Shown here: piece after piece, positions 4,892 to 42,016 of the stretch
Position numbering within the stretch: position 1 is the first letter of the stretch
Layout of the letters: each line of letters opens with the position of its first letter
From: an uncultured Nitrospiraceae bacterium
Lineage (GTDB): Bacteria > Nitrospirota > Nitrospiria > Nitrospirales > Nitrospiraceae
Direction: 5' to 3'
Length of the DNA: 64,000 nt
NCBI GenBank assembly: GCA_963706325.1
Contig: CAVPLT010000007.1
Coordinates: forward strand, 384,001 to 448,000
Made by a program: the position numbers and the translations under genes
The notes under the pieces: generated by a model
The model's input: the letters and a program-made list of their open reading frames with translations, nothing else
Told to the model about the DNA's origin: nothing
Databases searched by the model: none

Positions 4892-5038
4892 CCCTCGTCA
4901 ATGTTGTCTGCGGCTGGTCTTCTCTCCCGCGTAGTGCTTCGCCGGCGCAAATCCAAACCATGCGTGACAGTAGTCCAACTCGTCCGCCCAGGAGTTGCGC
5001 GTATCCCTTAGCATTCGTGGATGCTTGACGCGGGCGGA

Positions 5039-5066
5039 GGAAACTAGTAGTACTGGAAGAGTTTCC
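5039..5066. promoter_or_regulatory. Candidate TetR operator (GGAAACT-N14-AGTTTCC)
   Basis: 7-bp inverted repeat between a TTGACG -35-like hexamer (5025-5030) and the tetR start at 5077. Confidence 0.5.
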
Positions 5067-5076
5067 GGCGTACCTA

Positions 5077-5712
5077 ATGAAGACCCCCACGCATCGGCAC
5101 AGGCAACCGCTTACGACCAAGGACCGTTCCACGGCCGAACGGATCGTGGCTTCCGCGAGGCGCCATTTCCTGACCCACGGTTTCCGACACGTCACCATGG
5201 ACGATTTGGCGCGCGAGCTCGGGATGAGCAAGAAAACCCTCTATGCCTCCTTTCAAAGCAAGACCCTGTTGCTCGAAGCCGTGATCGTAGATAAGTTCCG
5301 CCAGGTGGAACAGGACCTCGACAGCATTACTGCCGGCTGCTCGTCGGATGTGCTGGCGTCATTGCAGGAATTGCTGGCTTGCATGCAACAGCACACCGAC
5401 GAGATTAAGCCGCCGTTCGTGCGCGATATGCAGCGTGAGTCGCCGGAGAGATTCAAAATGGTGGAAGTCCGGCGGCGGAATGTCATCCAGCGTCATTTCG
5501 GAAAGTTGCTCACTGCTGGACGGAAAGTCGGGATTATTCGCAAGGACGTTCCGACCAACCTCATCCTTGAGATTCTGCTGAGCGCGCTCCAGGCCATTAT
5601 GAATCCTCCTAAAATTGTAGAGTGGGGCCTCACTCCGAAGAGCGGGTATTCGGCAATCGTGACGGTCATAATGGAAGGCGTGATGACCGATCGCGCGCGC
5701 GCGGCGCTATGA
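5077..5712 (+). CDS. TetR/AcrR family regulator
   Basis: HTH GFRHVTMDDLARELGMSKKTLYASF; stop overlaps the next ATG (ATGA). Confidence 0.92.
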   Translation: MKTPTHRHRQPLTTKDRSTAERIVASARRHFLTHGFRHVTMDDLARELGMSKKTLYASFQSKTLLLEAVIVDKFRQVEQDLDSITAGCSSDVLASLQELLACMQQHTDEIKPPFVRDMQRESPERFKMVEVRRRNVIQRHFGKLLTAGRKVGIIRKDVPTNLILEILLSALQAIMNPPKIVEWGLTPKSGYSAIVTVIMEGVMTDRARAAL

Positions 5713-6701
5713 ACTTGCGGCGGAGATCAGATAGACGGACCAGCACGTGCCTTGTCGGAGTCTGTTGGCTGGTCTGGGCGCTGGCAAGTTGTACCGATCA
5801 GGAACGCGACCGTTTGCAGGGATACGTGGAAGGAGAGTTTGTGTATATCGCGTCGCCCTTCGCAGGCGCGCTCGAGTCGCTTCAGGTCCAGCGCGGGGCG
5901 CAGGTCAAATCGGGCGACTCGTTGTTTTGGTTGGACAGCACATCCGAAAAATCCGTTCGGGATGAGGCCGAGCGCAAACTCGCGCAAGCGCGAGCCACGT
6001 GGGCGGACGTCAAAAAAGGCAAACGTCCCTCGGAAATTGAGGCGCTTCAGGCCCAACTCAAGCAGGCGCGGGCGGCGTCCACCCTGTCAGAACGCGAATT
6101 CAAGCGGCAGCAAGGGCTTATTGGTGTCCCAGGCGCCGCGGTGGAACTTGATTTTGACCGGGCGCGATCCTCCCGCGACCAGACTCGTCAGCGGATAGCT
6201 GAGCTTGAAGCTGAATTGCGAACGGCGCAGTTAGGGTCCCGGAGCGATCAGATTATTGCTGCTGGGGCAGAGGTTCGGGCACGAGAGGCTGCGCTAGCCA
6301 AGGCGGAGTGGGAGTTGTCGCAAAAGCGCCAGAAGGCTCCCAAGGCCGGCTTGGTCTTCGATACGCTGTATCGCGAGGGAGAATGGGTCGCTGCCGGTCG
6401 GCCCGTCGTTGTCTTGCTGCCCCCACTCAATATCAAAGTGCGCACCTTTGTGCCGGAAACTCTGGTTGGAACGATCCAACCCGGTCGCTCTGTCCGCATC
6501 TGGGTAGACGGAATCACCGAGCCGCTCAGCGGCGCCGTGAGCTACGTTTCGCCGAAGGCGGAATACACGCCACCGGTCATCTATAGTCAGACGAGCCGTA
6601 GCAAGCTGGTTTTCATGGTTGAAGCGGTCTTTCCTCCCGACATCGCTGCCGGCCTGCATCCAGGTCAGCCGGTGGATGTACAGTTCGGCTCTGCTCAATG
6701 A
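5709..6701 (+). CDS. HlyD/YbhG-like periplasmic adaptor
   Basis: QGYVEGEFVYIASP, long coiled coil, SPKAEYTPPVIYS, LHPGQPVDV; ATG 5709 overlaps the tetR stop. Confidence 0.88.
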   Translation: MNLRRRSDRRTSTCLVGVCWLVWALASCTDQERDRLQGYVEGEFVYIASPFAGALESLQVQRGAQVKSGDSLFWLDSTSEKSVRDEAERKLAQARATWADVKKGKRPSEIEALQAQLKQARAASTLSEREFKRQQGLIGVPGAAVELDFDRARSSRDQTRQRIAELEAELRTAQLGSRSDQIIAAGAEVRAREAALAKAEWELSQKRQKAPKAGLVFDTLYREGEWVAAGRPVVVLLPPLNIKVRTFVPETLVGTIQPGRSVRIWVDGITEPLSGAVSYVSPKAEYTPPVIYSQTSRSKLVFMVEAVFPPDIAAGLHPGQPVDVQFGSAQ

Positions 6702-7639
6702 CGAACGATCACGCCCCAGCTGATCTCGCGATCGATGTGCGTGGGATGACCAAACGTTTCGGCGAACGGACGGTCGTCGACCATATTGAACTTCAAGTAC
6801 GGCGAGGCGAAATTTACGGGTTTCTTGGACCGAACGGCAGCGGCAAAACCACATTTATCCGTATGCTGTGCGGGTTGCTTCGTCCAGACGAGGGGAGCGG
6901 GACCTGCCTCGGGCATGACGTGATCACAGAGAGCGAAGCGATTAAACTCGAAGTCGGCTATATGACTCAGCGATTCAGTTTTTACGAAGACTTGAGCATT
7001 GCCGAGAATCTTCATTTTGTCGCTCGCATCTTTTCGGTGCCCAATCGGCAAGAGGCTGTACGGAGCAGTATCGAACGGCTTGGCCTTGGCGGCAGGCAGG
7101 GGCAGTTAGCGGGTGAACTGTCCGGAGGATGGAAGCAGCGGCTCGCGTTGGCGGCCTGCCTCATTCACCAGCCGAAACTGTTGCTGCTGGACGAACCCAC
7201 GGCGGGAGTGGATCCGAAAGCCCGCCGGGAGTTTTGGGAGCACATCCATGATTTGGCCGCCGAGGGTCTCACCTTTCTCATCACCACCCATTATATGGAT
7301 GAAGCCGAGCGGTGCCACAGGCTCGCCTATATCGCCTACGGGAAATTGCTCGCGCACGGGACCGTCCCGGACGTGATTGCAGACGCGGGTTTGACGACAT
7401 GGTCGGTCGTCGGACCGGATCTGCATCAGCTCGCAGAGCAGCTGCGGGGTCGCCCGGGCGTCAAACAGGCCGTAGCTTTCGGCAGCATGTTGCATGTGAG
7501 CGGAGACGATGCCGAGGCGCTCGAACGGGCGATCGCACCGTTCCTCGCCAGCCCTTATGAGTGGACCAGGATCGGCGCCAGCCTCGAAGATGTGTTCATC
7601 CACTTGATGGAACGTTCGCCGGACAATTTCTCAGCATGA
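6698..7639 (+). CDS. ABC transporter ATP-binding subunit (YbhF-like)
   Basis: GPNGSGKTT, LSGGWKQR, LLLLDEPT, H-loop TTHY. Confidence 0.93.
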   Translation: MTNDHAPADLAIDVRGMTKRFGERTVVDHIELQVRRGEIYGFLGPNGSGKTTFIRMLCGLLRPDEGSGTCLGHDVITESEAIKLEVGYMTQRFSFYEDLSIAENLHFVARIFSVPNRQEAVRSSIERLGLGGRQGQLAGELSGGWKQRLALAACLIHQPKLLLLDEPTAGVDPKARREFWEHIHDLAAEGLTFLITTHYMDEAERCHRLAYIAYGKLLAHGTVPDVIADAGLTTWSVVGPDLHQLAEQLRGRPGVKQAVAFGSMLHVSGDDAEALERAIAPFLASPYEWTRIGASLEDVFIHLMERSPDNFSA

Positions 7640-8778
7640 AGCAAAGCCGATCATTTTCACCGTCTCGATTGTGGGCTGTCGTTGTGAAGGAATTCGTCCA
7701 GATGAGACGGGACCGGATGACTTTCGGCATGATGATCGGTGTCCCGCTCATGCAGCTCATCCTGTTCGGATTCGCCATTAACTCAGATCCGAAACAACTG
7801 CCTGCGGCGGTACTGTCGGCTGACTATGGGCCCCAGGCACGGACCCTTTTGAGTGCCGTTCAACAGAGCGGGTATTTTAGCTTTGTCCGTCAGGTGAGCA
7901 GCGAATCCGAAGCGCGCGATCTTCTCGCCCGCGGAGAGGTCCAGTTCGTCATCACTATCCCGGTTAGCTTCTCCCGTGACTTATTACGTGGCGATCGCCC
8001 CGTGATACTCGTCGAAGCCGATGCCACCGACCCTGCCGCGACCAGCAATGCGGTCGGTTCGTTGCGGACCTCGATCAACAGGGCTCTGCAGCATGATTTG
8101 AAAGGTCCGATCGGAGATCTGGTAGGAACGGACGGTCCGATCGATCTGCGCATCCACGCGAAATACAATCCGGAAGCCATCACCCAATACAACATCGTGC
8201 CGGGGTTGATGGGCGTAGTGCTGACCATGACCATGGTCATGATCACCGGCTTGGCGATCACACGCGAACGTGAACGTGGCACGATGGAAAACCTCCTGTC
8301 CATGCCGACGCGTCCATTCGAGGTGATGATCGGGAAGATTGTTCCGTACATTTTGGTGGGTTATGTGCAAATCGGGCTTATTCTAGTGGCGTCGCATGTC
8401 TTGTTTCACGTGCCGATGGTCGGCAGTCTCGGTTTGCTCCTGCTGGTCGCGCTCGTGTTCATCGCCGCCAACCTAGCCATGGGAATCACGTTTTCCACAG
8501 TGGCTCAGAACCAACTCCAGGCCATGCAGATGTCGTTCTTCTTCTTCCTGCCATCAATCTTGTTGTCGGGTTTCATGTTTCCATTTCGAGGCATGCCGCC
8601 GTGGGCGCAAACAATCGGCGAAGTGCTCCCCCTCACGCACTTCCTCAGGATCGTGCGTGGCATTCTCCTGAAGGGCAATGGCCTCGATGACATACTCCTG
8701 CATCTCTGGAAGATTGTACTATTCGCTGTGATCGCGTTGACCATCGGCGTGAAGCGGTACCGACAGACGCTCGATTAG
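7636..8778 (+). CDS. ABC-2 permease (YbhS/R-like)
   Basis: KEFVQMRRDR, RERERGTMENLL, LSGFMFPFRGMP; ATG 7636 overlaps the upstream stop. Confidence 0.92.
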   Translation: MKQSRSFSPSRLWAVVVKEFVQMRRDRMTFGMMIGVPLMQLILFGFAINSDPKQLPAAVLSADYGPQARTLLSAVQQSGYFSFVRQVSSESEARDLLARGEVQFVITIPVSFSRDLLRGDRPVILVEADATDPAATSNAVGSLRTSINRALQHDLKGPIGDLVGTDGPIDLRIHAKYNPEAITQYNIVPGLMGVVLTMTMVMITGLAITRERERGTMENLLSMPTRPFEVMIGKIVPYILVGYVQIGLILVASHVLFHVPMVGSLGLLLLVALVFIAANLAMGITFSTVAQNQLQAMQMSFFFFLPSILLSGFMFPFRGMPPWAQTIGEVLPLTHFLRIVRGILLKGNGLDDILLHLWKIVLFAVIALTIGVKRYRQTLD

Positions 8779-26643: not shown

Positions 26644-27897
26644 ATGTCCGAGAACTCCCTCTCACCATCGCCTGAAGTTGTGGAGCAGGTCTATCGATCT
26701 GAGTCCCGCCAAGTGCTCGCCACCTTGATCCGCCTGCTGGGAGATTTTGATACCGCAGAGGAAGCATTGCACGATGCCTTTGCCGTGGCGGTCGAACAAT
26801 GGCCGCGCGATGGCATGCCTGCCAACCCCCGCGCGTGGCTCGTGTCCACCGGCCGGTTCAAGGCCATTGATGGTATGCGGCGGCGCGCGCGATTCAATGC
26901 ATCACTGGCGGAACTCGCCCGGCAACTGGAAACCAGCGCGAACGACGCGGAAGAACAAGCCGACGAGACCGTCGAGGACGACCGGTTGAGGCTGGTGTTT
27001 ACATGCTGCCATCCGACCCTGGCGCCCGAGGCCCAGGTGGCAATGACCTTGCGAGAGGTCTGTGGACTCACCACTGATGAAATCGCGCGAGCCTTCCTCA
27101 CCAAACCGCCTACGATCGCGCAACGCATCGTGCGCGCCAAGGCCAAGATTCGCGATGCAGGCATTCCTTACGAGGTGCCGGCTGAAGCGGAATTACCGGA
27201 TCGCCTCGATGCCGTCCTGCGGGTCGTCTACCTGGTCTTCAATGAGGGATACTCCGCGTCATCCGGCGAATCGCTGACCAGGCATGATCTATCGGGCGAA
27301 GCCATCCGCCTTGGACGATTACTCATGCATCTGCTCCCTGACCCCGAGGCTCTAGGCCTGGTAGCCCTCATGCTGTTGCATGATTCCCGGCGCGCCGCGC
27401 GCACGTCCTCAACGGGAGACCTCATTCTTATGGAAGATCAGGACCGGACGCTCTGGAACCGTGAGCAGATAGCCGAAGGCGCGGCGCTTGTGAAACGAGC
27501 ATTAGCGTCGCAACCGGTTGGACCGTATACGATTCAGGCGGCGATTGCGTCGGTGCATGCCCAGGCGCCTAGCTCTGCCGCGACGGAGTGGAGTCAAATT
27601 GTGGGTCTGTATGACCTACTGATGCAGGCTACGCCATCGCCAGTCATCGGGTTAAACCGTGCCGCAGCCGTCGCCATGCGTGACGGTCCGTCGGCTGGAC
27701 TCGCCCTCATCGATGCCATCCTCGATGGGGGTGACTTGACGACGTATCATCTCGCGCATGCCGCGCGCGCCGATCTCTGCCGGAGGTTGCGGCGTAACGG
27801 CGAAGCCCGCTCTTCCTACGAACGGGCTTTGAGCCTCACGCAACAAGAGCCGGAGCGGAGATTTTTGAGAAGGAGGTTGGCAGACCTGAAAGAGTGA
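26644..27897 (+). CDS. ECF42-type sigma factor with DUF6596/TPR C-terminal extension
   Basis: 417 aa; [57 protein letters not shown] genes nearby. Confidence 0.9.
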
Positions 27898-30036: not shown

Positions 30037-30063
30037 TGTCGATTTTGCCCGAGTCCGACGACT
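30037..30063 (+). promoter_or_regulatory. ECF42-type promoter 1
   Basis: TGTCGA-N16-CGACT, ending 37 nt before the VOC gene start. Confidence 0.75.
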
Positions 30064-30100: not shown

Positions 30101-30511
30101 ATGGCAACGGGGATTAAAAAGAGAGCAGTTAAGAAACCACAGGCGGCCAGTATCGTCTGGTTTGAGGTGCCTGCCGACGATCTCGGCCGGGCGAAGACAT
30201 TTTATGGCTCGTTGTTCGGCTGGAGTTTCGCAAAAATTCCTGCCGCTATCGACGACTATTGGCACATTGACACCGGTGGCAAAGATGCGACGCCTGACGG
30301 CGGGTTGATGCCGCGCATGCATCCGAAACAATCCATCACCAACTACGTCGGCGTGCCGTCGGTGACTGTTGCGATGAAGAAGGTCGATAAACTCGGCGGA
30401 ACGGTGTGCACGTCAAAGACGGCGGTGCCGCGCATGGGTTATTTCGCAATCTGTCAGGACACGGAGGGCAATACGTTTGCCTTGTGGGAGATGAACGAGC
30501 GCGCCAAGTGA
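30101..30511 (+). CDS. VOC family protein
   Basis: IVWFEV, FYGSLFGW, GYFAICQDTEGNTFALWE; GGAGG SD. Confidence 0.9.
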   Translation: MATGIKKRAVKKPQAASIVWFEVPADDLGRAKTFYGSLFGWSFAKIPAAIDDYWHIDTGGKDATPDGGLMPRMHPKQSITNYVGVPSVTVAMKKVDKLGGTVCTSKTAVPRMGYFAICQDTEGNTFALWEMNERAK

Positions 30512-30542: not shown

Positions 30543-30899
30543 ATGAAATATCTCTGCCTGGTGTATGTGGAAGAAAAGACGTTGAATGCTCTGTCCCGTG
30601 ATGAGCGGGTCGCATTGTCGGATCAGTCCATAAGCTACTGTGATGAATTGCAGAAAAACGGCCAACTCCTTGGCGCCTCGCCTCTTCATCCGGTAGAGAC
30701 CGCGACGACTGTGCGGGTGCGTGGTGGACAAGTCTCGATGACCGACGGGCCTTTCGCAGAAACGAAGGAACAGTTGGGCGGGTACCTATTGATCGATGTC
30801 CGAGACCTCAATGACGCCGTCCGGATCGCCTCGAAGTTTCCCGCCGCTCAGTACGGCAGTGTCGAAGTGCGGCCGCTTAAAGAGGGCGGTTGTGCCTGA
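30543..30899 (+). CDS. YciI/DGPF family protein
   Basis: DGPFAETKEQLGGY, VEVRP. Confidence 0.92.
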   Translation: MKYLCLVYVEEKTLNALSRDERVALSDQSISYCDELQKNGQLLGASPLHPVETATTVRVRGGQVSMTDGPFAETKEQLGGYLLIDVRDLNDAVRIASKFPAAQYGSVEVRPLKEGGCA

Positions 30900-30949: not shown

Positions 30950-31312
30950 ATGAAATTCATATTGCTGGTTCATCACGACGAGTCGGCATTCGAGCAGATG
31001 AGTGAGGAGGCACAGGGTGGATTACTGGCGGAGTCGCTCCGGCTCTGTCACCAATTGGATGCGAAGGGGGAGTATCTGCATGCCTCTCCGGTTCATCCTG
31101 CTGCAACAGCGACCCTTGTGCGGATGCGAGAGGGCAAGGCGATCGTGACCGATGGCCCGTTCATTGAAACGCGAGAGCAAATGGCGGGCTATTTTCTGAT
31201 CGAAGCGAAGGATCTCGAGGAAGCCACCGCCATCGCTACCCAGGTTCCGGGGGCACGCATCGGAACCGTCGAGGTTCGGCCGTTAATCGAAGTCATCGGC
31301 CTGCCGGAATAA
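30950..31312 (+). CDS. YciI/DGPF family protein
   Basis: DGPFIETREQMAGY, VEVRP. Confidence 0.92.
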   Translation: MKFILLVHHDESAFEQMSEEAQGGLLAESLRLCHQLDAKGEYLHASPVHPAATATLVRMREGKAIVTDGPFIETREQMAGYFLIEAKDLEEATAIATQVPGARIGTVEVRPLIEVIGLPE

Positions 31313-31324
31313 GCACTCTATCCA

Positions 31325-31351
31325 TGTCGATTCGAGGCTTCTCGTTCGACT
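31325..31351 (+). promoter_or_regulatory. ECF42-type promoter 2
   Basis: TGTCGA-N16-CGACT. Confidence 0.7.
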
Positions 31352-31486: not shown

Positions 31487-31513
31487 TGTCGAATTCGGAG
31501 CCATCGTGCGACT
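31487..31513 (+). promoter_or_regulatory. ECF42-type promoter 3
   Basis: TGTCGA-N16-CGACT upstream of the second VOC gene. Confidence 0.72.
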
Positions 31514-31580
31514 AATAGGCAGTGGACGGATCGAGCCCTTGCGAGAGGAGATCACCAATTGAAGCTTGAAAGGAGACGTT

Positions 31581-31982
31581 GTGGCCACCAAGATCTTCGT
31601 CAATTTGCCGGTCAATGATCTGCAAAAATCTATCGAGTTTTTCACTAAACTCGGCTTCACGTTCAATCCGCAGTTCACCGACGCCACGGGCACCTGCATG
31701 GTGGTGTCAGAGGACATTTTCGTGATGTTGCTCACAGAGGCGAAGTTTAAGACGTTCACGCCCAAAGCAATCTGTGATGCGACGAAGAACACGGAAGTAC
31801 TCGTCTGTCTGTCGCGCGAAAGCCGGGTCGACGTGGATGCGATGGTGCGCGATGCCATTCGCGCCGGTGGGACGACTTACAATCAACCGCAAGATCACGG
31901 GTTCATGTATGCGCACGGATTTCAAGATCTCGATGGGCACATTTGGGAATTGATCTTCATGGAGCCGGGCGCGGTCCAGTAA
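31581..31982 (+). CDS. VOC family protein
   Basis: KIFVNLPV, FNPQFTD, DHGFMY..FQDLDGHIWE; AAGGAG SD with GTG start. Confidence 0.9.
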   Translation: MATKIFVNLPVNDLQKSIEFFTKLGFTFNPQFTDATGTCMVVSEDIFVMLLTEAKFKTFTPKAICDATKNTEVLVCLSRESRVDVDAMVRDAIRAGGTTYNQPQDHGFMYAHGFQDLDGHIWELIFMEPGAVQ

Positions 31983-32068: not shown

Positions 32069-32662
32069 ATGCCATATCGCACGATGATCACTACCTGTTT
32101 GTGCCTGGTTCTAGCCACCGTTCCGGTCCTTGCCAAGGACAAGAAGCCGACTGAGGCGGAGATGCAGGCGATGATGGAGACGTACAAGAAACTGGCGATG
32201 CCCGGCGAGCCGCACAAGCAACTGGCCGCTTTGGCCGGCAGCTGGACCACACAGACTAAATCGTGGATGGACCCGAACAAGCCCCCGATGGAATCCGCCG
32301 GCACAGCTGAGATGAAGATGCTGCTGGACGGGCGTTTTCTCCAGCAGGAGTTCACCGGCGAGATGATGGGCCAACCCTTCTCCGGGATCGGGATCGATGG
32401 ATATGACAATCTTCGCAAAAAATATGTCACGACCTGGATCGACACCATGGGCACTGGGATCTTTTCGATGGAAGGCACGGCGAGCGCGGATGGCAAGACT
32501 ATTACGCTGAAAGGTCAGCATGCGGAGGCAGGCGGCGGGCACATGACCCATCGCGCCGTCTGGAAGATTCTAGACCATAACACTCACACCTTTGTGATGT
32601 ATGGTGCTCATGCAGGGGGGAAAGAAATGAAGATGATGGAGATTACCTACACACGGAAATAA
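32069..32662 (+). CDS. DUF1579 family exported protein
   Basis: Signal peptide; PGEPHKQL..LAGSW, GRFL, GYDN, WIDTMGT, MEITYTR. Confidence 0.82.
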   Translation: MPYRTMITTCLCLVLATVPVLAKDKKPTEAEMQAMMETYKKLAMPGEPHKQLAALAGSWTTQTKSWMDPNKPPMESAGTAEMKMLLDGRFLQQEFTGEMMGQPFSGIGIDGYDNLRKKYVTTWIDTMGTGIFSMEGTASADGKTITLKGQHAEAGGGHMTHRAVWKILDHNTHTFVMYGAHAGGKEMKMMEITYTRK

Positions 32663-32860: not shown

Positions 32861-34042
32861 ATGAACACGATTCGGGTACTCGTCGGGACGAGGAAAGGCG
32901 CATTCATTTTGACGTCGGACGGGACGCGCCGGCAGTGGGCAGTCAGCGGACCTCATTTCGCCGGCTGGGAGTTGTACCATCTTAAAGGATCTCCCGTTGA
33001 TCCCAACCGATTGTATGCGTCGCAGACCAGCAGCTGGTTCGGCCAGGTCATTCAGCGTTCGGATGATGGTGGCCAGACATGGAACCCGCCAGGAACCAAA
33101 CCGGAAGACCTCATGGGTCAGGATGGGATGCCTAAGGGTGAAAGCAATATGTTTGTATATGACGCTTCCCAAGAGACCGGGAAGCCCCTGACGACGCACC
33201 AGCATTACGACGGCACGCAGCGTCCGTGGGAGTTTAGGCGCGTCTGGCATCTGGAACCGTCGCTTACCGATCCCGACACGGTGTATGCCGGCGTGGAAGA
33301 TGCCGCCTTGTTTCGTTCGACCAACGGCGGGAAGACGTGGCAGGAGCTGGCGGGACTGCGCGACGCAAAAGGAAGCCTCTGGCAGCCTGGCGCAGGCGGT
33401 ATGTGTCTCCACACCATCATGCTGGACCGGAGCAATCCTGAGCGTATCTTCATTGCCATTTCAGCGGCGGGGGCCTTCCGAACGGACGACGCCGGCAAGA
33501 CTTGGAAGCCGATCAACCGTGGTCTCAAGTCGCAGTATGAGCTGCCCGATCCGGAGGCTGAAGTCGGCCACTGTGTCCATCGTATCGCGATGCATCCGTC
33601 GCGCCCGAACGTGCTGTACATGCAAAAGCACTGGGATGTCATGCGGAGCGACGATGCGGGCGGGTCCTGGCACGAGATCAGCGGAAACCTCCCGACCGAT
33701 TTTGGGTTTCCCATCGACGTGCATGCCCATGAACCAGAAACCATTTACGTCGTCCCGATTAAGAGCGATTCAGAACATTTTCCTCCCGATGGCAAGCTGC
33801 GCATCTATCGGAGCCGTACCGGAGGGAACGAGTGGGAAGCGTTGACCAAAGGACTGCCTCAGCGAGACTGCTATGTGAATGTCTTGCGGGACGCGATGGC
33901 CGTGGATTCGCTGGACCCCTGCGGGGTCTACGTGGGCACCACTGGAGGGCAAGTGTACGGTTCGGCTGATGGGGGGGATAGCTGGGGGCCGATCGTGCGG
34001 GATCTTCCGGCGGTGTTGTCCGTCGAGGTCCAAACGCTGTAG
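32861..34042 (+). CDS. Cytoplasmic BNR/Asp-box beta-propeller (often labelled exo-alpha-sialidase-like)
   Basis: Repeated S/T-x-D/N-x-G-x-T/S-W Asp-boxes ([40 protein letters not shown]); no signal peptide. Confidence 0.88.
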
Positions 34043-34043
34043 C

Positions 34044-34163
34044 AGCGCTGAAGACGGCCTCCAGCGGCCTTCTCGCTTCCCAAGCGTCCTCAACGCAGCC
34101 TTTAGACTGCGCCTCCGGGGTTTCCATCGGCTGCGGCTTTGCTGAAAGGCCGTTTTGGACGCT
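34044..34163. repeat. REP/MITE-like palindromic element, copy 1
   Basis: Terminal inverted arms AGCG..GAAGACGGCCT / AGGCCGTTTTG..CGCT; inner hairpin CGCAG..CTGCG. Confidence 0.65.
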
Positions 34164-34212
34164 CGCGAGAAGTAGCGCGCTCCAGAATTCACTCCAAGGG
34201 AACTGACGCGAC

Positions 34213-34509
34213 ATGATTCGAGTCATACTGCCGGCACATTTGCGGACCTTGGCGCGCATCAACGGTGAGGTGACGTTAAACTTCGAGGGTCTGGTGACGC
34301 AGCGCTCGGTGCTTGACGCGATCGAGGCACGCTACCCGATGCTGCGGGGGACGATCCGCGACCACCTTACGCAACGGCGCCGACCCTTCGTGAGGTTCTT
34401 CGCGTGCGAGCAGGATCTCTCTCACGAATCGCCGGATGCGGCATTGCCAGACGCGGTCGCGACAGGAGCCGAGCCGTTTCTGATCGTGGGCGCGATGGCG
34501 GGAGGCTGA
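34213..34509 (+). CDS. MoaD/ThiS ubiquitin-like protein
   Basis: 98 aa beta-grasp pattern ending AMAGG. Confidence 0.9.
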
Positions 34510-34954: not shown

Positions 34955-35423
34955 ATGACTTACAGCCGAGGAATTGAGCGATGTGGGCTGGCGATCCTCT
35001 GTGTTTGCGCAATGTCAGTCGTTGCATCAGCCGCAGACCATCCCAGCGAAGACCTGAGTTGATGCGCAGTTCAAGACGATGGATACGGACGGGAATGGGA
35101 GGGTGTCACCGGATGAGCATGCGGCCGGGGCAAAAAAAATGTTCGATGCGATGGATGCCAACAAAGACGGCACGGTGACAATCGCTGAAATGGATACCAT
35201 CCATAAAAATATACCTGGAAAGCAGCCGAAGGGCAGCGATTTGTCTTCGGTCGAAAAGATTAAGGCAGTCGATAAGAATGGGGACGGACTATTGAGTGCG
35301 GAAGAGCATGCCGATGGTTCTAGAAAGATGTTCAGCAAGATGGACACAGACAGGGATGGCTTCCTCAGTCGGGCGGAATTGACGGCAGGCCATGAGAAGA
35401 TGCTGAAAAAAACCGAACCATAG
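34955..35423 (+). pseudogene. Secreted four-EF-hand protein, frameshifted near 35050-35062
   Basis: AAGGAG SD plus a signal peptide ORF (MTYSRG...VASA) that stops near 35062. Four EF loops (DTDGNGRVS, DANKDGTVT, DKNGDGLLS, DTDRDGFLS) lie in another frame. Confidence 0.7.
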
Positions 35424-35766: not shown

Positions 35767-36051
35767 TTGCTGAGGATCACGACCGACTGTTCCAAGGATA
35801 CTGTGAAGCTGCGACTGGAAGGTCGTCTCACTGGCCCCTGGGTGCAGGAATTGGAGCGTTCTTGGATGGAGCTTTCTCCCGAGCAACGCAGAGGCGCCGT
35901 GGTGGATCTGGCTGGGGTCATTTCCATTGGAGAGGATGGAAGGCGATTACTGGTGACGATGTGGGAGCAGGGCGCGGTGTTTCATGCGACGGACTGCCTC
36001 ACACGATCGCTCGTGGAGAACATTACAGGATTCGGGCGGACCCAGGAATGA
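35767..36051 (+). CDS. STAS-like small protein
   Basis: MLRIT...LRLEGRLTGPWVQEL...VVDLAGVISI...G..LL. Confidence 0.75.
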   Translation: MLRITTDCSKDTVKLRLEGRLTGPWVQELERSWMELSPEQRRGAVVDLAGVISIGEDGRRLLVTMWEQGAVFHATDCLTRSLVENITGFGRTQE

Positions 36052-36211
36052 CCAGTAGGCGAAATCACACAGCCGCCTGACGAATAGAGATGATCTATTC
36101 CTCGGCGTGGTGCCGGGCACTCCGTTGCTTACAAGTGACTCAACCAGTAAGATAGGCGTCGTCCGTCACCTTATGCGAATTGCCGTTTTAGTTTTTTATC
36201 AGGGAGCGAGC

Positions 36212-37408
36212 ATGGCCAGGCGAACGCATACATCAACGCTAGCCTCGATTCTGACCGGATGTCTCGTTCTGGCTTTGTTGCCGGCGTGCAAGCAACAGGC
36301 CGCTTCGACGGCGCCTCCTCCGGTCACCCAAGTGGGTATCATTGTGGCGACAGCTCAGGATATCCCAGATGAACCGGAGTTCATTGGGCAGGCGGAATCT
36401 TCACGCCCGGTCGAAATCCGATCACAGGTCACGGGGATATTGAAGGCTTGGTTTTTTAAGGAAGGCCGCGATGTCAAGAAGGGCGACCGTCTGTATCAGA
36501 TCGATCCCGTTCCATTCCATGCCGCTATGCTAAGCGCCAAAGCGAAAGTCTCCCAATCGGAAGCACGATTGGTCCAAGCCCGGCAAAACTTTGCCCGTGT
36601 TAAACCCTTGTTGGCCGAGCAGGCCGTGAGCACGAAAGATGTAGACGATGCTGTCGCGGAGGAATTGGCGGCAAAAGCGGCGCTGGAAGGCGCCAAGGCA
36701 GAGCTCGTCAAAGCCAAATTTGATCTCGACAACACGCTGACTATAGCTCCGATCGATGGCATGATCGAGCGCACGCGCGTCTATGAAGGTCGACTGGTGT
36801 CGGCCCAGACCGACTTGCTGACGGTCATTCATCAGATCGATCCTATGTATGTAATTGTCAGTGCGCCGGAAAGCTTTTTGCTGAAACGACGTCGGGACAG
36901 CGATGCCAAGCGAATTCAACATCCTGGTGTCTATCAATTGCGCGGTGTGCTCACATTTGTGGACGGCACGATCTACGAGCATGAAGGGGTATTGGACCTT
37001 CTAGATATCGGACTGAAGACTGATACAGGGTCGCGGCAAGCGCGAGTCGTCTTTCCCAATCCTGATCGGGTGTTATTGCCAGGGCAGTTTGTGCGGGTGA
37101 AATTTAAAGGCACCCTCAAGACCGGGGCGATCCTCGTACCGCAGCGCGCGGTCCAGCAAGGCGCGAAGGGTTCGATCATTTTTGTCGTCGGAATCGAGGA
37201 TAAGGTTGAGATGCGGGAGATCCAGGCGACGAGTTGGCAAGGGAAGCAGTGGATCGTCGAGGAAGGTCTGCATGTGGGTGAACGTGTTATCGTCGATGGT
37301 CTGCATAAGATCGCACCCGGAGCCCCGGTGAAGCCTATGCCGCTTCCGGATCCTGGTGCGCCGACCGTTCCGACTGCTGCCCCGCCTAAAGCGGAGCAGG
37401 CCTCGTGA
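36212..37408 (+). CDS. RND periplasmic adaptor, lipoprotein (AcrA-like)
   Basis: Lipobox LPAC; VEIRSQVTG, LYQIDP, APIDG, LLPGQFV, VPQRAV. Confidence 0.92.
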   Translation: MARRTHTSTLASILTGCLVLALLPACKQQAASTAPPPVTQVGIIVATAQDIPDEPEFIGQAESSRPVEIRSQVTGILKAWFFKEGRDVKKGDRLYQIDPVPFHAAMLSAKAKVSQSEARLVQARQNFARVKPLLAEQAVSTKDVDDAVAEELAAKAALEGAKAELVKAKFDLDNTLTIAPIDGMIERTRVYEGRLVSAQTDLLTVIHQIDPMYVIVSAPESFLLKRRRDSDAKRIQHPGVYQLRGVLTFVDGTIYEHEGVLDLLDIGLKTDTGSRQARVVFPNPDRVLLPGQFVRVKFKGTLKTGAILVPQRAVQQGAKGSIIFVVGIEDKVEMREIQATSWQGKQWIVEEGLHVGERVIVDGLHKIAPGAPVKPMPLPDPGAPTVPTAAPPKAEQAS

Positions 37409-40400
37409 TCTCTCACTTTTTCATCGACCGTCCAATTTTTGCTTCGGTCTTGTCCATCGTCATTGTCGTGATCGGGTTGGTGGCCTTGCGGGCGCTCCCC
37501 ATCGCTCAATTCCCTGAAATCACTCCGCCTGTCGTTCAAGTCGAGGCCGACTATCCCGGCGCCAACGCGGAAATCGTGGCTGATTCGGTTGCGCGTCCCA
37601 TCGAAGTCCAGCTCCCAGGAATCGACAATTTGCTGTACTACGATTCCACCAGCACCAACGACGGGCACATGTCCATCAAGCTGACGTTCGAGATCGGCAC
37701 CGACGTCGACATCGCTCAAGTCCAAACGCAGAATCGGGTGAAGCTCGCCGAACCGCAACTTCCTCCGGAGGTCGTGCGCCAGGGCATCAGCATCACGAAA
37801 GTCTCGCCGGATCTGCTGGCGGTCGTGGCCTTGAGTTCGACCGATCCGACCCACGATACCGTCTATTTGTCCAACTACGCGATTCTCCGCGTTCTCGACA
37901 ACTTAAAGCGGTTGCGTGGTGTGGGCAATGCCATTGTCTTCGGCTCGCAAAACTATTCGATGCGGCTGATCCTGGATCCGATCAGAATGGCACAGCTCAG
38001 CCTCACGCCGACGGACATTTCGAGCGTCGTCCGTGAGCAGAACCGAGATTTTCCTGCCGGAACCATTGGCCGTGAACCGGCCTTGAAGGGAACCGAACTG
38101 ACCATTCCCGTCATCACGCAAGGCCGGCTGACCGAAGTGAAGGATTTTGAGGATCTGATTGTCCGTGCCATGCCGAACGGCTCGATGATCCGATTGAAGG
38201 ATGTGGCGCGCGTTGAGCTGGGGGCGCAATCGTACACGCTGGAAGGGCGATGGAACGGTAAGCCGAACGTTTTCCTGCTGACCTTCCTTTCGCCCGGGGC
38301 CAACGCGCTCGATACGGTCAAGCGGGTGAGGGCCGAACTAGCGGAAGTTTCCAAGAGCTTCCCCACCGGGGTGTCCTACGATATCCCCTACGATACGACA
38401 CGCTTCATCGAAGTCTCCATTCAAGAAGTGGTGAAGACGCTGGCAGAAGCCATGGTACTGGTCATTCTTGTGGTGTATCTCTTTCTTCAGAGCTGGCGCG
38501 CGACGTTGATTCCCGGCGTGGCGGTGCCGGTATCCTTGATCGGGACCTTCGCCGGCATGCAAGCCCTGGGATTTTCCATCAATACCCTGACTCTCTTCGG
38601 GATGGTGTTGGCCATCGGTATCGTGGTGGACGATGCCATCGTCGTGGTGGAAAACTGCGAACGTCATATGACGCAGGGAAAGCTGTCGCCGAAGCAGGCG
38701 GCCAAGCGGGCAATGGAAGAGGTGACTGGGCCGGTCATCGCCATCGTGCTGGTGCTGTGCGCGGTGTTCGTGCCGGTCGGGTTCTTGGGCGGTATCACCG
38801 GTGAACTGTACAAGCAGTTTGCGATTACCATTTCGATCGCGGTGATTATTTCGGGGTTTGTTGCCCTGACATTAAGTCCGGCGCTGTGCGCGCTCGTGTT
38901 GAAACCTGGCGAGGAGAGCCACGGTGGTTTCTTCGGTTTCTTCAATCGGACCTTTAGCTGGATGCAGACTCGGTACATTACCACCGTGGGTGTGGCGATG
39001 AAACGCCGCATGCTTTCATTAGCCGTATTCGGCGTCCTGTTGATAGCCGTATTTATGCTCTTCAGAGTTCTTCCCGGAAGTTTTTTGCCGGAGGAGGACC
39101 AAGGGTATTTCATCACGATTGTTCAATTGCCTGACGGTGCCTCCAAGCAGCGGACCGACGCGGTGTTGAGCAAGATCGAAAGCTATTTTCTATCGAATCC
39201 AGTGATCCATTCGACCGATGCCTTATCAGGCCAAAATTTTGTCTTTAATACACGAGGCCCTAACGCCGCGACAATGTTTGTGCCATTGAGGCATTGGGAT
39301 GAGCGTACGGCGCCGCAACATCATGTGAAAGCTATCATTGGTGCGGCCTATGCGGAGTTTGCCAAGATTCCGGAGGCGCTAATCCTGGCCTTCAATGCGC
39401 CGTCAATTCGAGGGCTGGGCGCCACGGGGGGGTTTACCTTACAGCTTCAGGATCCGAGCAGCGGGGACTTCAATAAGTTTTCCGCCGCTGCGCAAGAGTT
39501 TGTGACCAAGGCACGGCAACATCCGGCTGTCGGCGCTATCGGCACGAGCTTCCGAGTCAGTGCGCCACGCATTTATGCCAAAGTGAACCGCGAGCGCGCC
39601 AAGGCTTTGGGTGTGCCGATTTCTGAAGTGTTCGATACCATGCAGGCGTTTTTTGGAAACTTCTACATTAATGATTTCATCAAATTCGGTCGAGTATTTC
39701 GCGTACAGACAGAGGCCGAAGCGCAATACCGATCCACGCCCGAAGCTATTTCGAAAATCTATGTGCGGGCCCATGGGTCGCAAGGCACGACGATGATTCC
39801 CTTGGATACCGTCGTGAGTACCGAGTTTACGAGCGGCCCCGATCCTGTGACACATTTCAATGGGTACAATACTGCGCTCGTGCTTGGGGCGGCTGCTTCG
39901 GGATTCAGTTCGGGTCAAGTGCTCAATGCGCTGGAAGATATAGCGAATGAGGTGCTCGTGCCGAAAGGTTATGGGGTCGATTGGAGTGGAATCTCCTTTC
40001 AGGAACGCATGGTCGGGAGTCAGTCGCTCTATGCGTTTGCCTTTGGATTGTTAATGGTGTTTTTGGTGCTTGCCGCTCAGTATGAGAGTTGGGTCGTCCC
40101 CTTTGCGGTGATTTTAGCCGTGCCCATCGGATTGTTCGGCGCTCTCAGCGCTGTCTGGCTTAAAGGCATGAGCAACGACATCTATTTTCAAATCGGCTTG
40201 GTAACCCTAATTGGACTGTCCGCGAAGAATGCGATCTTGATCGTGGAATTTGCAAATAGACGTTACGAAGAAGGCCATCCCTTGTTGGAGTCGACAGTTG
40301 AAGCAGCTAAACTTCGCTTTCGTCCGATCGTCATGACTTCCATGGCCTTTATTCTGGGTGTGGTCCCGCTTGTTATTGCCACCGGCGCCGGCGCCGCCAG

Positions 40401-40587
40401 TCGTAATTCGATCGGCACCGGAGTGTTCGGAGGAATGTTGGCGGCCACATTTCTGGCAATTTTCTTCGTGCCGCTCTTCTTTGTGCTTATTCGATCACTG
40501 AGTCATCGATTGACAGGCAAGACCCCCCATCCGCCTCGAAGTGAAGCAGATGGAACCGAGAAGGAGCGAGATTATCAGCATGCGTAG
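37405..40587 (+). CDS. RND permease, HAE1/AcrB family
   Basis: FFIDRPIFA, AIGIVVDDAIVVVEN, FLPEEDQG, GLSAKNAILIVEFA, RFRPIVMTS. Confidence 0.95.
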   Translation: MISHFFIDRPIFASVLSIVIVVIGLVALRALPIAQFPEITPPVVQVEADYPGANAEIVADSVARPIEVQLPGIDNLLYYDSTSTNDGHMSIKLTFEIGTDVDIAQVQTQNRVKLAEPQLPPEVVRQGISITKVSPDLLAVVALSSTDPTHDTVYLSNYAILRVLDNLKRLRGVGNAIVFGSQNYSMRLILDPIRMAQLSLTPTDISSVVREQNRDFPAGTIGREPALKGTELTIPVITQGRLTEVKDFEDLIVRAMPNGSMIRLKDVARVELGAQSYTLEGRWNGKPNVFLLTFLSPGANALDTVKRVRAELAEVSKSFPTGVSYDIPYDTTRFIEVSIQEVVKTLAEAMVLVILVVYLFLQSWRATLIPGVAVPVSLIGTFAGMQALGFSINTLTLFGMVLAIGIVVDDAIVVVENCERHMTQGKLSPKQAAKRAMEEVTGPVIAIVLVLCAVFVPVGFLGGITGELYKQFAITISIAVIISGFVALTLSPALCALVLKPGEESHGGFFGFFNRTFSWMQTRYITTVGVAMKRRMLSLAVFGVLLIAVFMLFRVLPGSFLPEEDQGYFITIVQLPDGASKQRTDAVLSKIESYFLSNPVIHSTDALSGQNFVFNTRGPNAATMFVPLRHWDERTAPQHHVKAIIGAAYAEFAKIPEALILAFNAPSIRGLGATGGFTLQLQDPSSGDFNKFSAAAQEFVTKARQHPAVGAIGTSFRVSAPRIYAKVNRERAKALGVPISEVFDTMQAFFGNFYINDFIKFGRVFRVQTEAEAQYRSTPEAISKIYVRAHGSQGTTMIPLDTVVSTEFTSGPDPVTHFNGYNTALVLGAAASGFSSGQVLNALEDIANEVLVPKGYGVDWSGISFQERMVGSQSLYAFAFGLLMVFLVLAAQYESWVVPFAVILAVPIGLFGALSAVWLKGMSNDIYFQIGLVTLIGLSAKNAILIVEFANRRYEEGHPLLESTVEAAKLRFRPIVMTSMAFILGVVPLVIATGAGAASRNSIGTGVFGGMLAATFLAIFFVPLFFVLIRSLSHRLTGKTPHPPRSEADGTEKERDYQHA

Positions 40588-42016
40588 AATGGCTCTCGTA
40601 CTCGCATCAACCCTATTGGCCGCCTGCGCCGTCGGGCCGGATTTCACGAAGCCGGACGCCACAACGCCGAACGGGTTCCGCATGGCCGAACCAGGCGATA
40701 ATGCTGCCTCAATCGCCAATACGCCTTGGTGGAAATTGCTGAAGGATCAAGAGCTACAAAAGCTCATCCGCAGGGCGTTAGAAGAAAATAAGGATCTCAA
40801 ACGCGCAGCCGCGGCGGTGGAGGAATTTCAGGCCCGCTTGTTCATCTCGAAGAACGACTTTGCACCTCAATTGAGCGTGTCGGCCAATGCGCCGAGCTTT
40901 GGCCGAAGAAGCGTATTTCTAGTTCCAGGATTTCCGAACCCGTTCAACTACTACTTGCAGGGAAATTTGTCGTGGGAGCTCGACATTTGGGGCCGTATCC
41001 GTCGGTCAAATGAGGCGGCTCGCGGCGAACTTCTGTCACGTGAAGAGAACCGGCGCGCCATTGTGTTGCAGCTGGTGAGCGGTGTGGCAGAGGCCTACTT
41101 CGAGCTGCTGCAGTTCGATATGCAGCTCGATATTGCGCGGCGGACGCTGAAATCGTGGGAAGAGTCTGTCAGGATCGCGCAGGCACGATTGCGGCAGGGA
41201 ATGATCTCCAAACTCGATGCCGACCAATTTGAAGCTGAACGGGCCAATGCTGCAGCGAGGGCTGCTGAATTTGAACGTCAGAAGGTACAGAAGGAAAATC
41301 AGCTCAGTGTGTTGCTGGGTCGGAACCCTGGCCTGATTGCCCGGGGGCATTCCCTGACGGAGCAAGTGATGCCCCCGGATGTGCCGCCAGGTCTTCCCTC
41401 GGAACTCCTTCAGCGACGTCCGGATATCCTGCAGGCTGAACAGGATCTCGCCGCAGCCACGGCTCGCATTGGGATGGCAAAGGCTGATCGATTTCCGAAG
41501 CTCAGCATCACGGGCATTCTAGGAGTAGCAAGTCCGCATCTGTCACGGCTGGTGGCCAACGAAACCGCATTCGGGGTGGCTGGGCCTAGCCTCGCCGGGC
41601 CATTGTTTAACGCACAAATCCTTGGGTTTCAACAGCGGGCAGCGGAAGCCCAAGCCAGTCAAGCATTGGCGCAGTATGAACAATCGGTGTTGGTTGCCTT
41701 CAAGGAAGTGGAAGATTCTCTAGTGGCGGTTAGAACCGTGCGCGAACAACGAGCGGCACAGTTGCAACAAGTCGAGGCCTTGCGGTCGGCACTCAGTCTG
41801 GCCAGTCTTCGCTATAAGGGTGGTCTGGCGAATTATTTGGATGTGTTGATTGCCCAACGTAGTCTGTTCGAAGCCGAATTGGCGCTCATGGGTACGCATC
41901 GATTGCATTTGGTATCCATCGTACAGTTGTACAAGGCATTGGGGGGTGGATGGACTCCAGAAGAGAATCCGCCGATTCAACCGCTGCCGGTTGCCTCCGA
42001 TCTTGAAAAAACTTAA
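40580..42016 (+). CDS. Outer membrane factor lipoprotein (NodT/OprM-like)
   Basis: Lipobox LAAC-AVGP, WELDIWG, PSELLQRRPDI, LYKALGGGW. Confidence 0.93.
   Translation: MRRMALVLASTLLAACAVGPDFTKPDATTPNGFRMAEPGDNAASIANTPWWKLLKDQELQKLIRRALEENKDLKRAAAAVEEFQARLFISKNDFAPQLSVSANAPSFGRRSVFLVPGFPNPFNYYLQGNLSWELDIWGRIRRSNEAARGELLSREENRRAIVLQLVSGVAEAYFELLQFDMQLDIARRTLKSWEESVRIAQARLRQGMISKLDADQFEAERANAAARAAEFERQKVQKENQLSVLLGRNPGLIARGHSLTEQVMPPDVPPGLPSELLQRRPDILQAEQDLAAATARIGMAKADRFPKLSITGILGVASPHLSRLVANETAFGVAGPSLAGPLFNAQILGFQQRAAEAQASQALAQYEQSVLVAFKEVEDSLVAVRTVREQRAAQLQQVEALRSALSLASLRYKGGLANYLDVLIAQRSLFEAELALMGTHRLHLVSIVQLYKALGGGWTPEENPPIQPLPVASDLEKT

Follow-up and report, generated by a model that had tools for sequence, protein, structure and literature searches.

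A cytoplasmic Asp-box propeller paired with a ubiquitin-like protein: a widespread, uncharacterized module at a Nitrospiraceae locus

Some partners of beta-grasp carrier proteins have the fold of a pyridoxal phosphate enzyme, of a TIM barrel or of MoaE. In CysO-CysM, CysO-BexX (PDB 4N6E), MoaD-MoaE and ThiS-ThiG a carrier ending in Gly-Gly (GG) is genetically tied to one such partner, and in these carrier-enzyme pairs the E1 enzyme is often shared in trans; mycobacteria, for example, have a single MoeZ for MoaD and CysO alike (PMC3227635). Here we describe a pair of genes with the same pattern that is located on a 64,000-nucleotide stretch of DNA (hereafter the window; contig CAVPLT010000007.1, positions 384,001 to 448,000) from an uncultured Nitrospiraceae bacterium. 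The pair encodes a propeller and a ubiquitin-like protein (Ubl) and differs from the carrier-enzyme pairs in having a His-rich Asp-box propeller as the partner and no pathway genes nearby. We found no description of this pair in the literature, in a search that had subscription journals and supplements outside its reach, and the keyword-matched passages of PMC1779556 and PMC2948915 contain no mention of BNR or sialidase. The propeller-Ubl module is real, widespread and uncharacterized, and databases regularly label its propeller a sialidase, including the versions in P. aeruginosa, Burkholderia and Ralstonia.

The propeller and the ubiquitin-like protein form a widespread two-gene module

We examined the pairing in close relatives, in members of the genus and in genomes drawn by phylum, with tallies that include two unpublished genomes (G425 and G393). 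The close set comprises 80 loci kept from a GTDB scan with at least 581 matches; this one clade is 71-86% identical to the window propeller over some 15 phylum-level labels, a few of which may reflect mis-binning, and its best-matching members are labeled Nitrospira. A Ubl gene that ends in GG lies directly 3' of the propeller gene in all 80 of these loci. Relatives within the genus have a gap of 51-663 bp between the two genes, in place of which many relatives outside the genus, including many of the close loci, have an ATGA overlap. The propeller itself is present in 22 of 24 genus relatives, and a Ubl was present in 22 of the 23 loci fetched, the one miss being at a contig end. For the phylum draws, a profile search detected the propeller in 20/301, 43/151 and 38/101 genomes of three large phyla (centres included). 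The phylum-sampled loci, in which propeller identity falls to 25-80%, have a Ubl in 88 of 97 cases, with 56 located downstream, 30 upstream and 2 in one open reading frame (ORF) with the propeller. The nine loci without a Ubl include two at a contig edge, one with 262 bp of downstream sequence and two that are the same locus.

The two proteins also vary together. Specifically, propeller and Ubl distances are correlated over 73 pairs with a Mantel rho of 0.60, a value that is inflated by relatedness and that 0 of 1000 permutations reached, and the correlation is 0.69 among 48 distant pairs. None of the phage records searched matched. The pairing occurs far above chance. It is a widespread two-gene module, as the first-pass annotation of this DNA had stated, and the neighborhood survey bears this out with the adjacency seen in the close and phylum-sampled loci.

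Several unusual arrangements were encountered as well. Apparent sigma-propeller or propeller-Ubl fusions (P0317, P0392, P0130) were rejected as frameshifted reads, and one double propeller is present among the best 120 of 247 clusters. Two Chloroflexota loci, L187 and L185, each have two nearby propeller paralogs, with one Ubl between them in L187 and none in L185; the downstream copy in L187 has lost its His site.

Family and conserved residues of the propeller

The 393-residue protein had been described as a BNR propeller without a signal peptide, and the ORF, Pfam, the upstream stop and hydropathy all agree with this. Its Pfam matches are BNR and Sortilin-Vps10, an in-frame stop lies 10 codons 5' of the ATG, and hydropathy gave no signal peptide or membrane segment, with a best 12-residue value of 1.27 over the first 30 positions and no 19-residue window above 0.68. 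An AlphaFold2 (AF2) model built from 73 sequences reached a predicted local distance difference test score (pLDDT) of 94 and a predicted template modeling score of 0.93, superseding an earlier model from 18 close sequences with a pLDDT of 77. The top structural match by far is PDB 3B7F (VIA Z 50.9, root-mean-square deviation 1.8, 354 residues aligned; next match Z 28), which also matches with E values of 1e-68 by sequence and 3e-123 by profile at about 32-36% identity. This protein, a product of structural genomics, is seven-bladed with its function given as 'Not known' in a table of PMC2716378. We assign the window propeller to the 3B7F family, of the seven-bladed, cytoplasmic Asp-box type. 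Foldseek and VIA returned no characterized metalloenzyme of this propeller family and, after 3B7F, only generic seven-bladed propellers (Z 23-28); the Foldseek matches include Ycf48 with D1 peptide and sortilin. Three other BNR propellers encoded in the genome were rejected as paralogs on account of N-terminal hydrophobic leaders and unrelated neighbors.

Conservation was assessed with 79 sequences, non-redundant at 60%, drawn from 155. The first-pass annotation had drawn attention to two CxH motifs, which read G-M-C182-L-H184 and G-H-C238-V-H240, and had proposed that the propeller binds or uses the Ubl through these Cys/His sites. Both His residues are conserved (H184 in 76/79, H240 in 71/79), as is a third His that sits in a QxH motif not named there (H257 and Q255, each 73/79), and the three His residues occur together in 66 of the 79 sequences. 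In contrast, C182 is Cys in only 39/79, and position 238 is Cys in 60/79 and Asp in 11/79, such that both Cys are present in 34/79 and neither in 14/79. Thus the His part of that proposal stands and its first Cys does not, and the site is better described as three His together with Cys/Asp238, Gln255, Arg343 (78/79) and Lys/Arg12 (75/79). Also conserved are S201 and W129 (72/79 each), position 306, which is His in the window propeller and Arg in most relatives (R/H in 75/79), and the top-face positions F281-G282-F283 and P299. Among 73 paired sequences H184, H240, Q255, H257, S201 and R343 are invariant. The structurally characterized relative 3B7F (reut_b4987 / YP_299179.1, Ralstonia eutropha JMP134) shares the three His, the Gln, Ser, Lys and Arg with the window propeller and differs from it in having neither Cys, with K-M-H and D-P-H at the two motifs.

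By the secondary structure of the model, the site residues are placed topologically at strand-A starts and in B-C loops. They are thereby on the face away from the Asp-boxes, where the Asp-box propeller class has its active site (PMC2716378). The exchange of Cys for Asp at position 238 would fit a metal ligand better than a thioester cysteine, and the conservation pattern suggests that the three His residues likely bind a metal.

The database names of the propeller, 'exo-alpha-sialidase' and 'glycosyl hydrolase', have their source in the Asp-box propeller fold that is common to glycoside hydrolase families GH33 and GH74, and the matches that follow 3B7F, by structure as well as by profile, are GH74 enzymes. 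These names and matches speak for a glycoside hydrolase, either a sialidase or a GH74-like enzyme, to which the Ubl would be an incidental neighbor, a reading that we regard as highly improbable. Hallmarks of GH33 sialidases are an F/Y-R-I-P motif and an Arg triad, and that of GH74 is a catalytic Asp pair. The F/Y-R-I-P motif occurs in none of the 155 propeller sequences, R343 is the only near-invariant Arg column apart from the mixed R/H306, and the propeller alignment has no near-invariant Asp outside Asp-box and repeat positions, nor is any pair of Asp residues conserved on the top face. The Asp position of GH74 at which 2CN2 and 2CN3 differ, which we take to be catalytic, aligns with His257 in a blade register that is uncertain. 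Sialidases are six-bladed and GH74 enzymes have 7+7 blades (table of PMC2716378), whereas the propeller matches seven-bladed 3B7F over its full length and is a single, cytoplasmic 393-residue unit. Also against a glycosidase are the lack of a signal peptide, the absence of sugar genes nearby and the tight pairing with a Ubl in either gene order. The earlier judgment that the propeller is probably not a sialidase is upheld, as six blades, the F/Y-R-I-P motif and the Arg triad are all missing.

The ubiquitin-like protein and the use of its Gly-Gly end

The Ubl alone has no Pfam or NCBIfam match. A profile of its family finds as best solved matches the CysO proteins of Amycolatopsis (4N6E, E 3e-19) and M. 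tuberculosis (3DWG, E 2e-18), followed by a Thermus MoaD-related protein and SAMP1 structures. The ESM Atlas labels the window Ubl MoaD/ThiS-like, and it matches the thrC-linked Ubl of the same genome at E 6e-6. Judged by these matches, it is a beta-grasp protein of the CysO/SAMP1 type and not a canonical MoaD or ThiS; the GG end noted for it in the first-pass annotation is confirmed. Where residues follow the GG in distant relatives, the GG is kept internally (GG invariance in our alignment A3 arises by construction, as its rows were cut at GG, and is not used as evidence). In a tree with 12 added MoaD, CysO, ThrC-linked and AOR-linked Ubls, the window Ubl falls apart from these in its own long-branch clade (100/100); with 98 columns the base of this tree is unresolved, and it cannot show a single clade for all propeller-paired Ubls. 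The pairing counts, the correlated distances and this separate clade agree with the proposal that the pair is a dedicated, co-inherited Ubl module outside molybdenum cofactor (MoCo) and thiamine operons.

The first-pass annotation had also noted that the window lacks ThiF/MoeB, MoaE, ThiG and JAB genes. This is confirmed, as tblastn searches of the window with the genome's own MoeB (two queries), JAB, MoaE, ThiG, MoaA, MoaC, ThrC, CysK and TtuA were empty. Elsewhere the genome has three ThiF/MoeB E1 genes, one JAB and six other ThiS-profile matches, with clusters of moaC-moaD-moaE-moaA, of thiS-thiG and of cysK/thrC-Ubl-moeB-JAB. Of 90 candidate pair-bearing genomes 80 were searched, and 77 of these encode a MoeB/ThiF E1; the absence of an E1 nearby therefore does not mean that the pair is E1-independent. 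Genes for ThiS-like Ubls, CysK and MoeB also lie together in two sulfur-assimilation clusters, at G000:C4:624323-629817 and C4:434825-439401, one of which adds ThrC, a second Ubl and JAB and the other cysteine desulfurase-like and encapsulin-like genes (named by eye). Several E1 matches in Chloroflexota have an in-frame TGA, possibly selenocysteine.

We surveyed the neighborhoods of 139 loci (1.45 Mb). JAB, MoaE, ThiG, MoaC, ThrC and CysK occur in 0/139, TtuA in 1/139 at a distance, and no unexplained neighbor recurs that could be an E2 gene, although no E2 profile search was made. An E1 gene is directly adjacent in two loci. In L047 a MoeZ (E1-rhodanese) gene starts 15 bp after the Ubl gene, giving a three-gene run of propeller, Ubl and MoeZ at 5001-7675, and in L044 a spacer of 29 bp separates the propeller gene from a MoeB-like gene on its upstream side; a rough Poisson P for two such cases is 0.002-0.04 with assumed expectations of 0.07-0.3. 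MoaA occurs in 3/139 loci, directly after the Ubl gene in L032 and L054. This placement and the CysO-like nature of the Ubl would be compatible with an accessory branch of MoCo or cysteine synthesis, for which the Ubl would serve as a spare MoaD or CysO. We consider such a branch very doubtful given the absence of MoaE, MoaC, ThiG, ThrC and CysK from all of these loci, the separate MoCo, thiamine and cysK/thrC clusters of the genome and the separate clade of the window Ubl.

Tailed Ubls, which carry residues after the GG, occur almost only with JAB, which is what a requirement for a free GG would predict. Specifically, a strong Prok-JAB match (cut-off near E 1e-12, chosen by us) is present in 18/19 genomes with tailed Ubls relative to 19/37 distant genomes with untailed ones (Fisher P 0.001). 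A complex prediction of propeller, Zn and Ubl with 73-row alignments scored 0.20, where the mark is 0.32, and is counted for neither side.

Considering both proteins, the comparisons of their sequences suggest that the propeller is likely an undescribed enzyme that acts on the sulfur-loaded tail of the Ubl. The more specific reading that we favor, and hold tentatively, is that of a metalloenzyme for small-molecule detoxification whose sulfur donor is the Ubl thiocarboxylate. The Ubl would carry the sulfur, and a housekeeping MoeZ/MoeB encoded elsewhere would be the likely enzyme that forms the thiocarboxylate at its C-terminus. Its Gly-Gly tail would then enter the top-face pocket and be held there by Arg343 and Lys12, and a metal on His184, His240, His257 and Cys/Asp238 would drive sulfur transfer to a small molecule or, alternatively, a release of the sulfur as sulfide. 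In the genus, a neighboring ECF42 sigma factor likely directs transcription of the module along with that of VOC, YciI and DUF1579 genes, and this gene set points to a role in dealing with a small molecule that is reactive or toxic. With still more reserve we entertain a broader proposal, that three-His metallo-propellers constitute a new class of Ubl enzyme in which the activated tail may serve as a protein-borne sulfur nucleophile (a one-shot 'protein thiol') against toxins, or in which the propeller may be a JAB-independent eraser or reader of a widespread but unrecognized bacterial protein tag, under ECF42 and Ser/Thr-kinase control.

Several observations weigh against a sulfur-donor role of this kind. 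Solo propellers with an intact site and no Ubl nearby exist (L097, L133, L134, L137, L163/L185 and the plasmid loci L269 and L270), and four of five solo-propeller genomes searched hold only ThrC-, CysM-, MoeZ- or AOR-linked Ubls and the fifth none. There are Ubl-propeller fusions with an internal GG (L141, P0193 and L173, the last from the unpublished genome G393), and 15 clusters among the best 120 of 247 have a Ser/Thr kinase fused to the N-terminus of a propeller whose site is intact. The kinase-propeller fusions (P0284-P0298, P0136) are about 700 residues long and keep the His/Gln/Arg site, which indicates that a sensor fits as well as an enzyme. In addition, E1s are common anyway, being present in 11/14 control genomes; the contrast between tails and JAB is confounded by phylum, the JAB-poor genomes being mostly Pseudomonadota; the His geometry derives from the topology of a model; and no gene for a third enzyme or for a pathway is found repeatedly across the 139 neighborhoods, such that no substrate is indicated.

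The intact-site solo propellers and the Ubl-propeller and kinase-propeller fusions, together with the 137/139 loci that have no adjacent E1, would be accommodated by a Ubl that is never activated. The Ubl would in that case be a permanent subunit, or a plug, of a propeller that binds a metal or a small molecule and that works either as a detoxification enzyme in its own right or as a sensor for ECF42 or kinase signaling. Also in keeping with this is that ECF42 is proposed to be controlled by protein binding to its TPR extension (PMC8999054) and that an ECF42-type sigma gene is found next to the pair both in the close clade and in P. aeruginosa, where the pair is 29% identical. We nevertheless regard an unactivated Ubl as unlikely because the GG is retained throughout the close relatives, and internally in tailed forms, because an E1 is adjacent in two loci, and because an ECF42 gene is near only 9/139 pairs.

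We likewise judge as improbable that an E1-activated Ubl is conjugated to proteins in the manner of SAMP, TtuB or Urm1, with the propeller being a metal-dependent deconjugase or a tag reader or adaptor. The SAMP1 structures among the solved profile matches are compatible with protein tagging, as is the resemblance of the propeller site to a Zn-hydrolase ligand set, and a deconjugase would also resolve the fusions whose GG is internal. The Kelch propeller KLHDC2 moreover takes di-Gly C-termini in its top pocket (PMC10591846). However, genes for an E2, a JAB or a protease are not among the recurring neighbors, and position 238 is Asp in 11/79 sequences, hence Cys238 is no obligate thioester residue. 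A propeller that itself cut after GG should also allow tails in the absence of JAB, yet nearly all genomes with tailed Ubls have one, within the same phylum confounding.

The ECF42 link, the surrounding genes and known systems

The first-pass annotation had placed the pair in an ECF42 stress response. ECF42 is a TPR-extended sigma factor associated with DGPF/YciI genes (PMC6180224; PMC8999054), and the sigma factor encoded in the window has both this extension and these neighbors (Table 1). With the promoter pattern TGTCG(A/G)-N16/17-CG(A/T)C, scanned on the coding strand, the window has three sites within 1.5 kb that resemble mapped S. meliloti RpoE10 promoters (PMC6180224); the same pattern has 47 matches genome-wide on both strands. 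The nearest motif is 1374 bp 5' of the propeller gene, and no terminator-like matches were found in the gaps between the VOC, DUF1579, propeller and Ubl genes by a sigma-70/terminator scan that itself performs at chance level.

Table 1. Features of the locus, in window coordinates.
Feature	Position	Strand	Basis
ECF42-type sigma factor, 417 aa: sigma2, sigma4, DUF6596, TPR extension	26644-27897	+	Pfam
ECF42-type promoter motif TGTCGA-N16-CGAC, 5' of VOC-YciI-YciI	30037-30062	+	pattern scan
VOC/glyoxalase-like protein, regulon neighbor	30101-30511	+	ORF list, Pfam
YciI/DGPF protein	30543-30899	+	ORF list, Pfam
YciI/DGPF protein	30950-31312	+	ORF list, Pfam
ECF42-type promoter motif TGTCGA-N16-CGAC	31325-31350	+	pattern scan
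ECF42-type promoter motif TGTCGA-N16-CGAC, nearest one 5' of VOC-DUF1579-propeller-Ubl	31487-31512	+	pattern scan
VOC/glyoxalase-like protein	31566-31982	+	ORF list, Pfam
DUF1579 protein, directly 5' of propeller	32069-32662	+	ORF list, Pfam
Propeller ORF, 393 aa	32861-34042	+	ORF list; Pfam; AF2 model; conservation
Intergenic gap, 170 bp, with imperfect palindromic repeated element (about 34046-34160)	34043-34212	.	inverted repeats
Ubl ORF, 98 aa, C-terminus GAMAGG	34213-34509	+	ORF list; family profile; ESM Atlas

Within the genus the motif lies no more than 1.5 kb upstream in 20/23 loci, which as kin are not independent, and in four of them it is within 200 bp of the propeller gene; the antisense control gave 1 motif among 25 loci scanned. 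Among the 80 close loci, 5 have the motif within 200 bp upstream relative to 1 in the control. A general ECF42 promoter in these loci was rejected as unsupported, with matches over 2 kb in 12/80 as compared to 8 antisense and 4 downstream. The motif is directly upstream in only 1 of 72 pairs from Actinomycetota, Chloroflexota and Pseudomonadota, and across the 139 surveyed loci YciI genes are present in 14. In P. aeruginosa, the 29%-identical pair lies beside a 68%-identical sigma gene and YciI and VOC genes; the pair is transcribed divergently there, and the motif points away from it. PA1356, which may belong to this P. aeruginosa stretch, is stated to promote adhesion and biofilm, without data in that source (PMC11538994). 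In L267 (NZ_CP133752.1), a P. aeruginosa sequence with a plasmid annotation, the ECF42, YciI, VOC, Ubl, propeller and YbaK genes form a chromosomal-looking stretch. Judged by motifs and gene neighborhoods, the ECF42 link is real in the genus and recurrent elsewhere, and is not general; the proposed ECF42 connection fits this locus and its genus and does not extend to most lineages.

As for the rest of the locus, the palindromic element in the gap between the two genes has three more copies in the genome with 71-75% identity over about 110 bp. A four-EF-hand protein is encoded 3' of the pair (about 34980-35423, + strand; the ORF is called from 35079 and its true start is probably earlier). It has weak similarity, below their cut-offs, to lanmodulin and XopAW models, and no such protein is beside the pair in 24 other loci checked. 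Further downstream (35767-42016, + strand) are a small ORF that appears STAS-like by eye and has no Pfam match and an RND efflux operon of a membrane fusion protein, a 1060-residue transporter and an outer-membrane factor, named by eye from their translations.

Should the sulfur-donor reading be true, it would bring a new fold to the small group of enzymes that draw on sulfur-carrier proteins, and the ECF42 regulon would obtain its first concrete chemistry. The 3B7F crystal structure and the short list of conserved residues make this model directly testable.

Several known systems resemble the pair in part. Ycf48 and sortilin, which are among the fold matches of the propeller, are peptide-binding Asp-box propellers, and KLHDC2, with its top pocket for a di-Gly C-terminus, is a six-bladed Kelch protein and offers an analogy only. 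Neither a three-His site nor a partner gene for a Ubl is known to us for any of the three. TfuA-ThiS, in which a thiocarboxylate is hydrolyzed, is a precedent for an enzyme that consumes a Ubl thiocarboxylate, and conjugation by SAMP, TtuB and Urm1 is a precedent for Ubls with a dual role. These systems differ from the pair in their folds, and no YcaO/TfuA, TtuA or E2 neighbors recur beside it. The linkage and clustering of canonical MoaD-MoaE and ThiS-ThiG are not seen (moaE 0, thiG 0, moaC 0 and moaA 3 of 139 loci). The arrangement of bacterial E1-E2-JAB ubiquitination operons is likewise not seen, with JAB in 0/139 loci and an E1 beside the pair in 2/139, in a survey that included no E2 profile search. 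Overall, in our best model the propeller-Ubl pair would work in the manner of CysO-CysM or CysO-BexX while being a member of neither.

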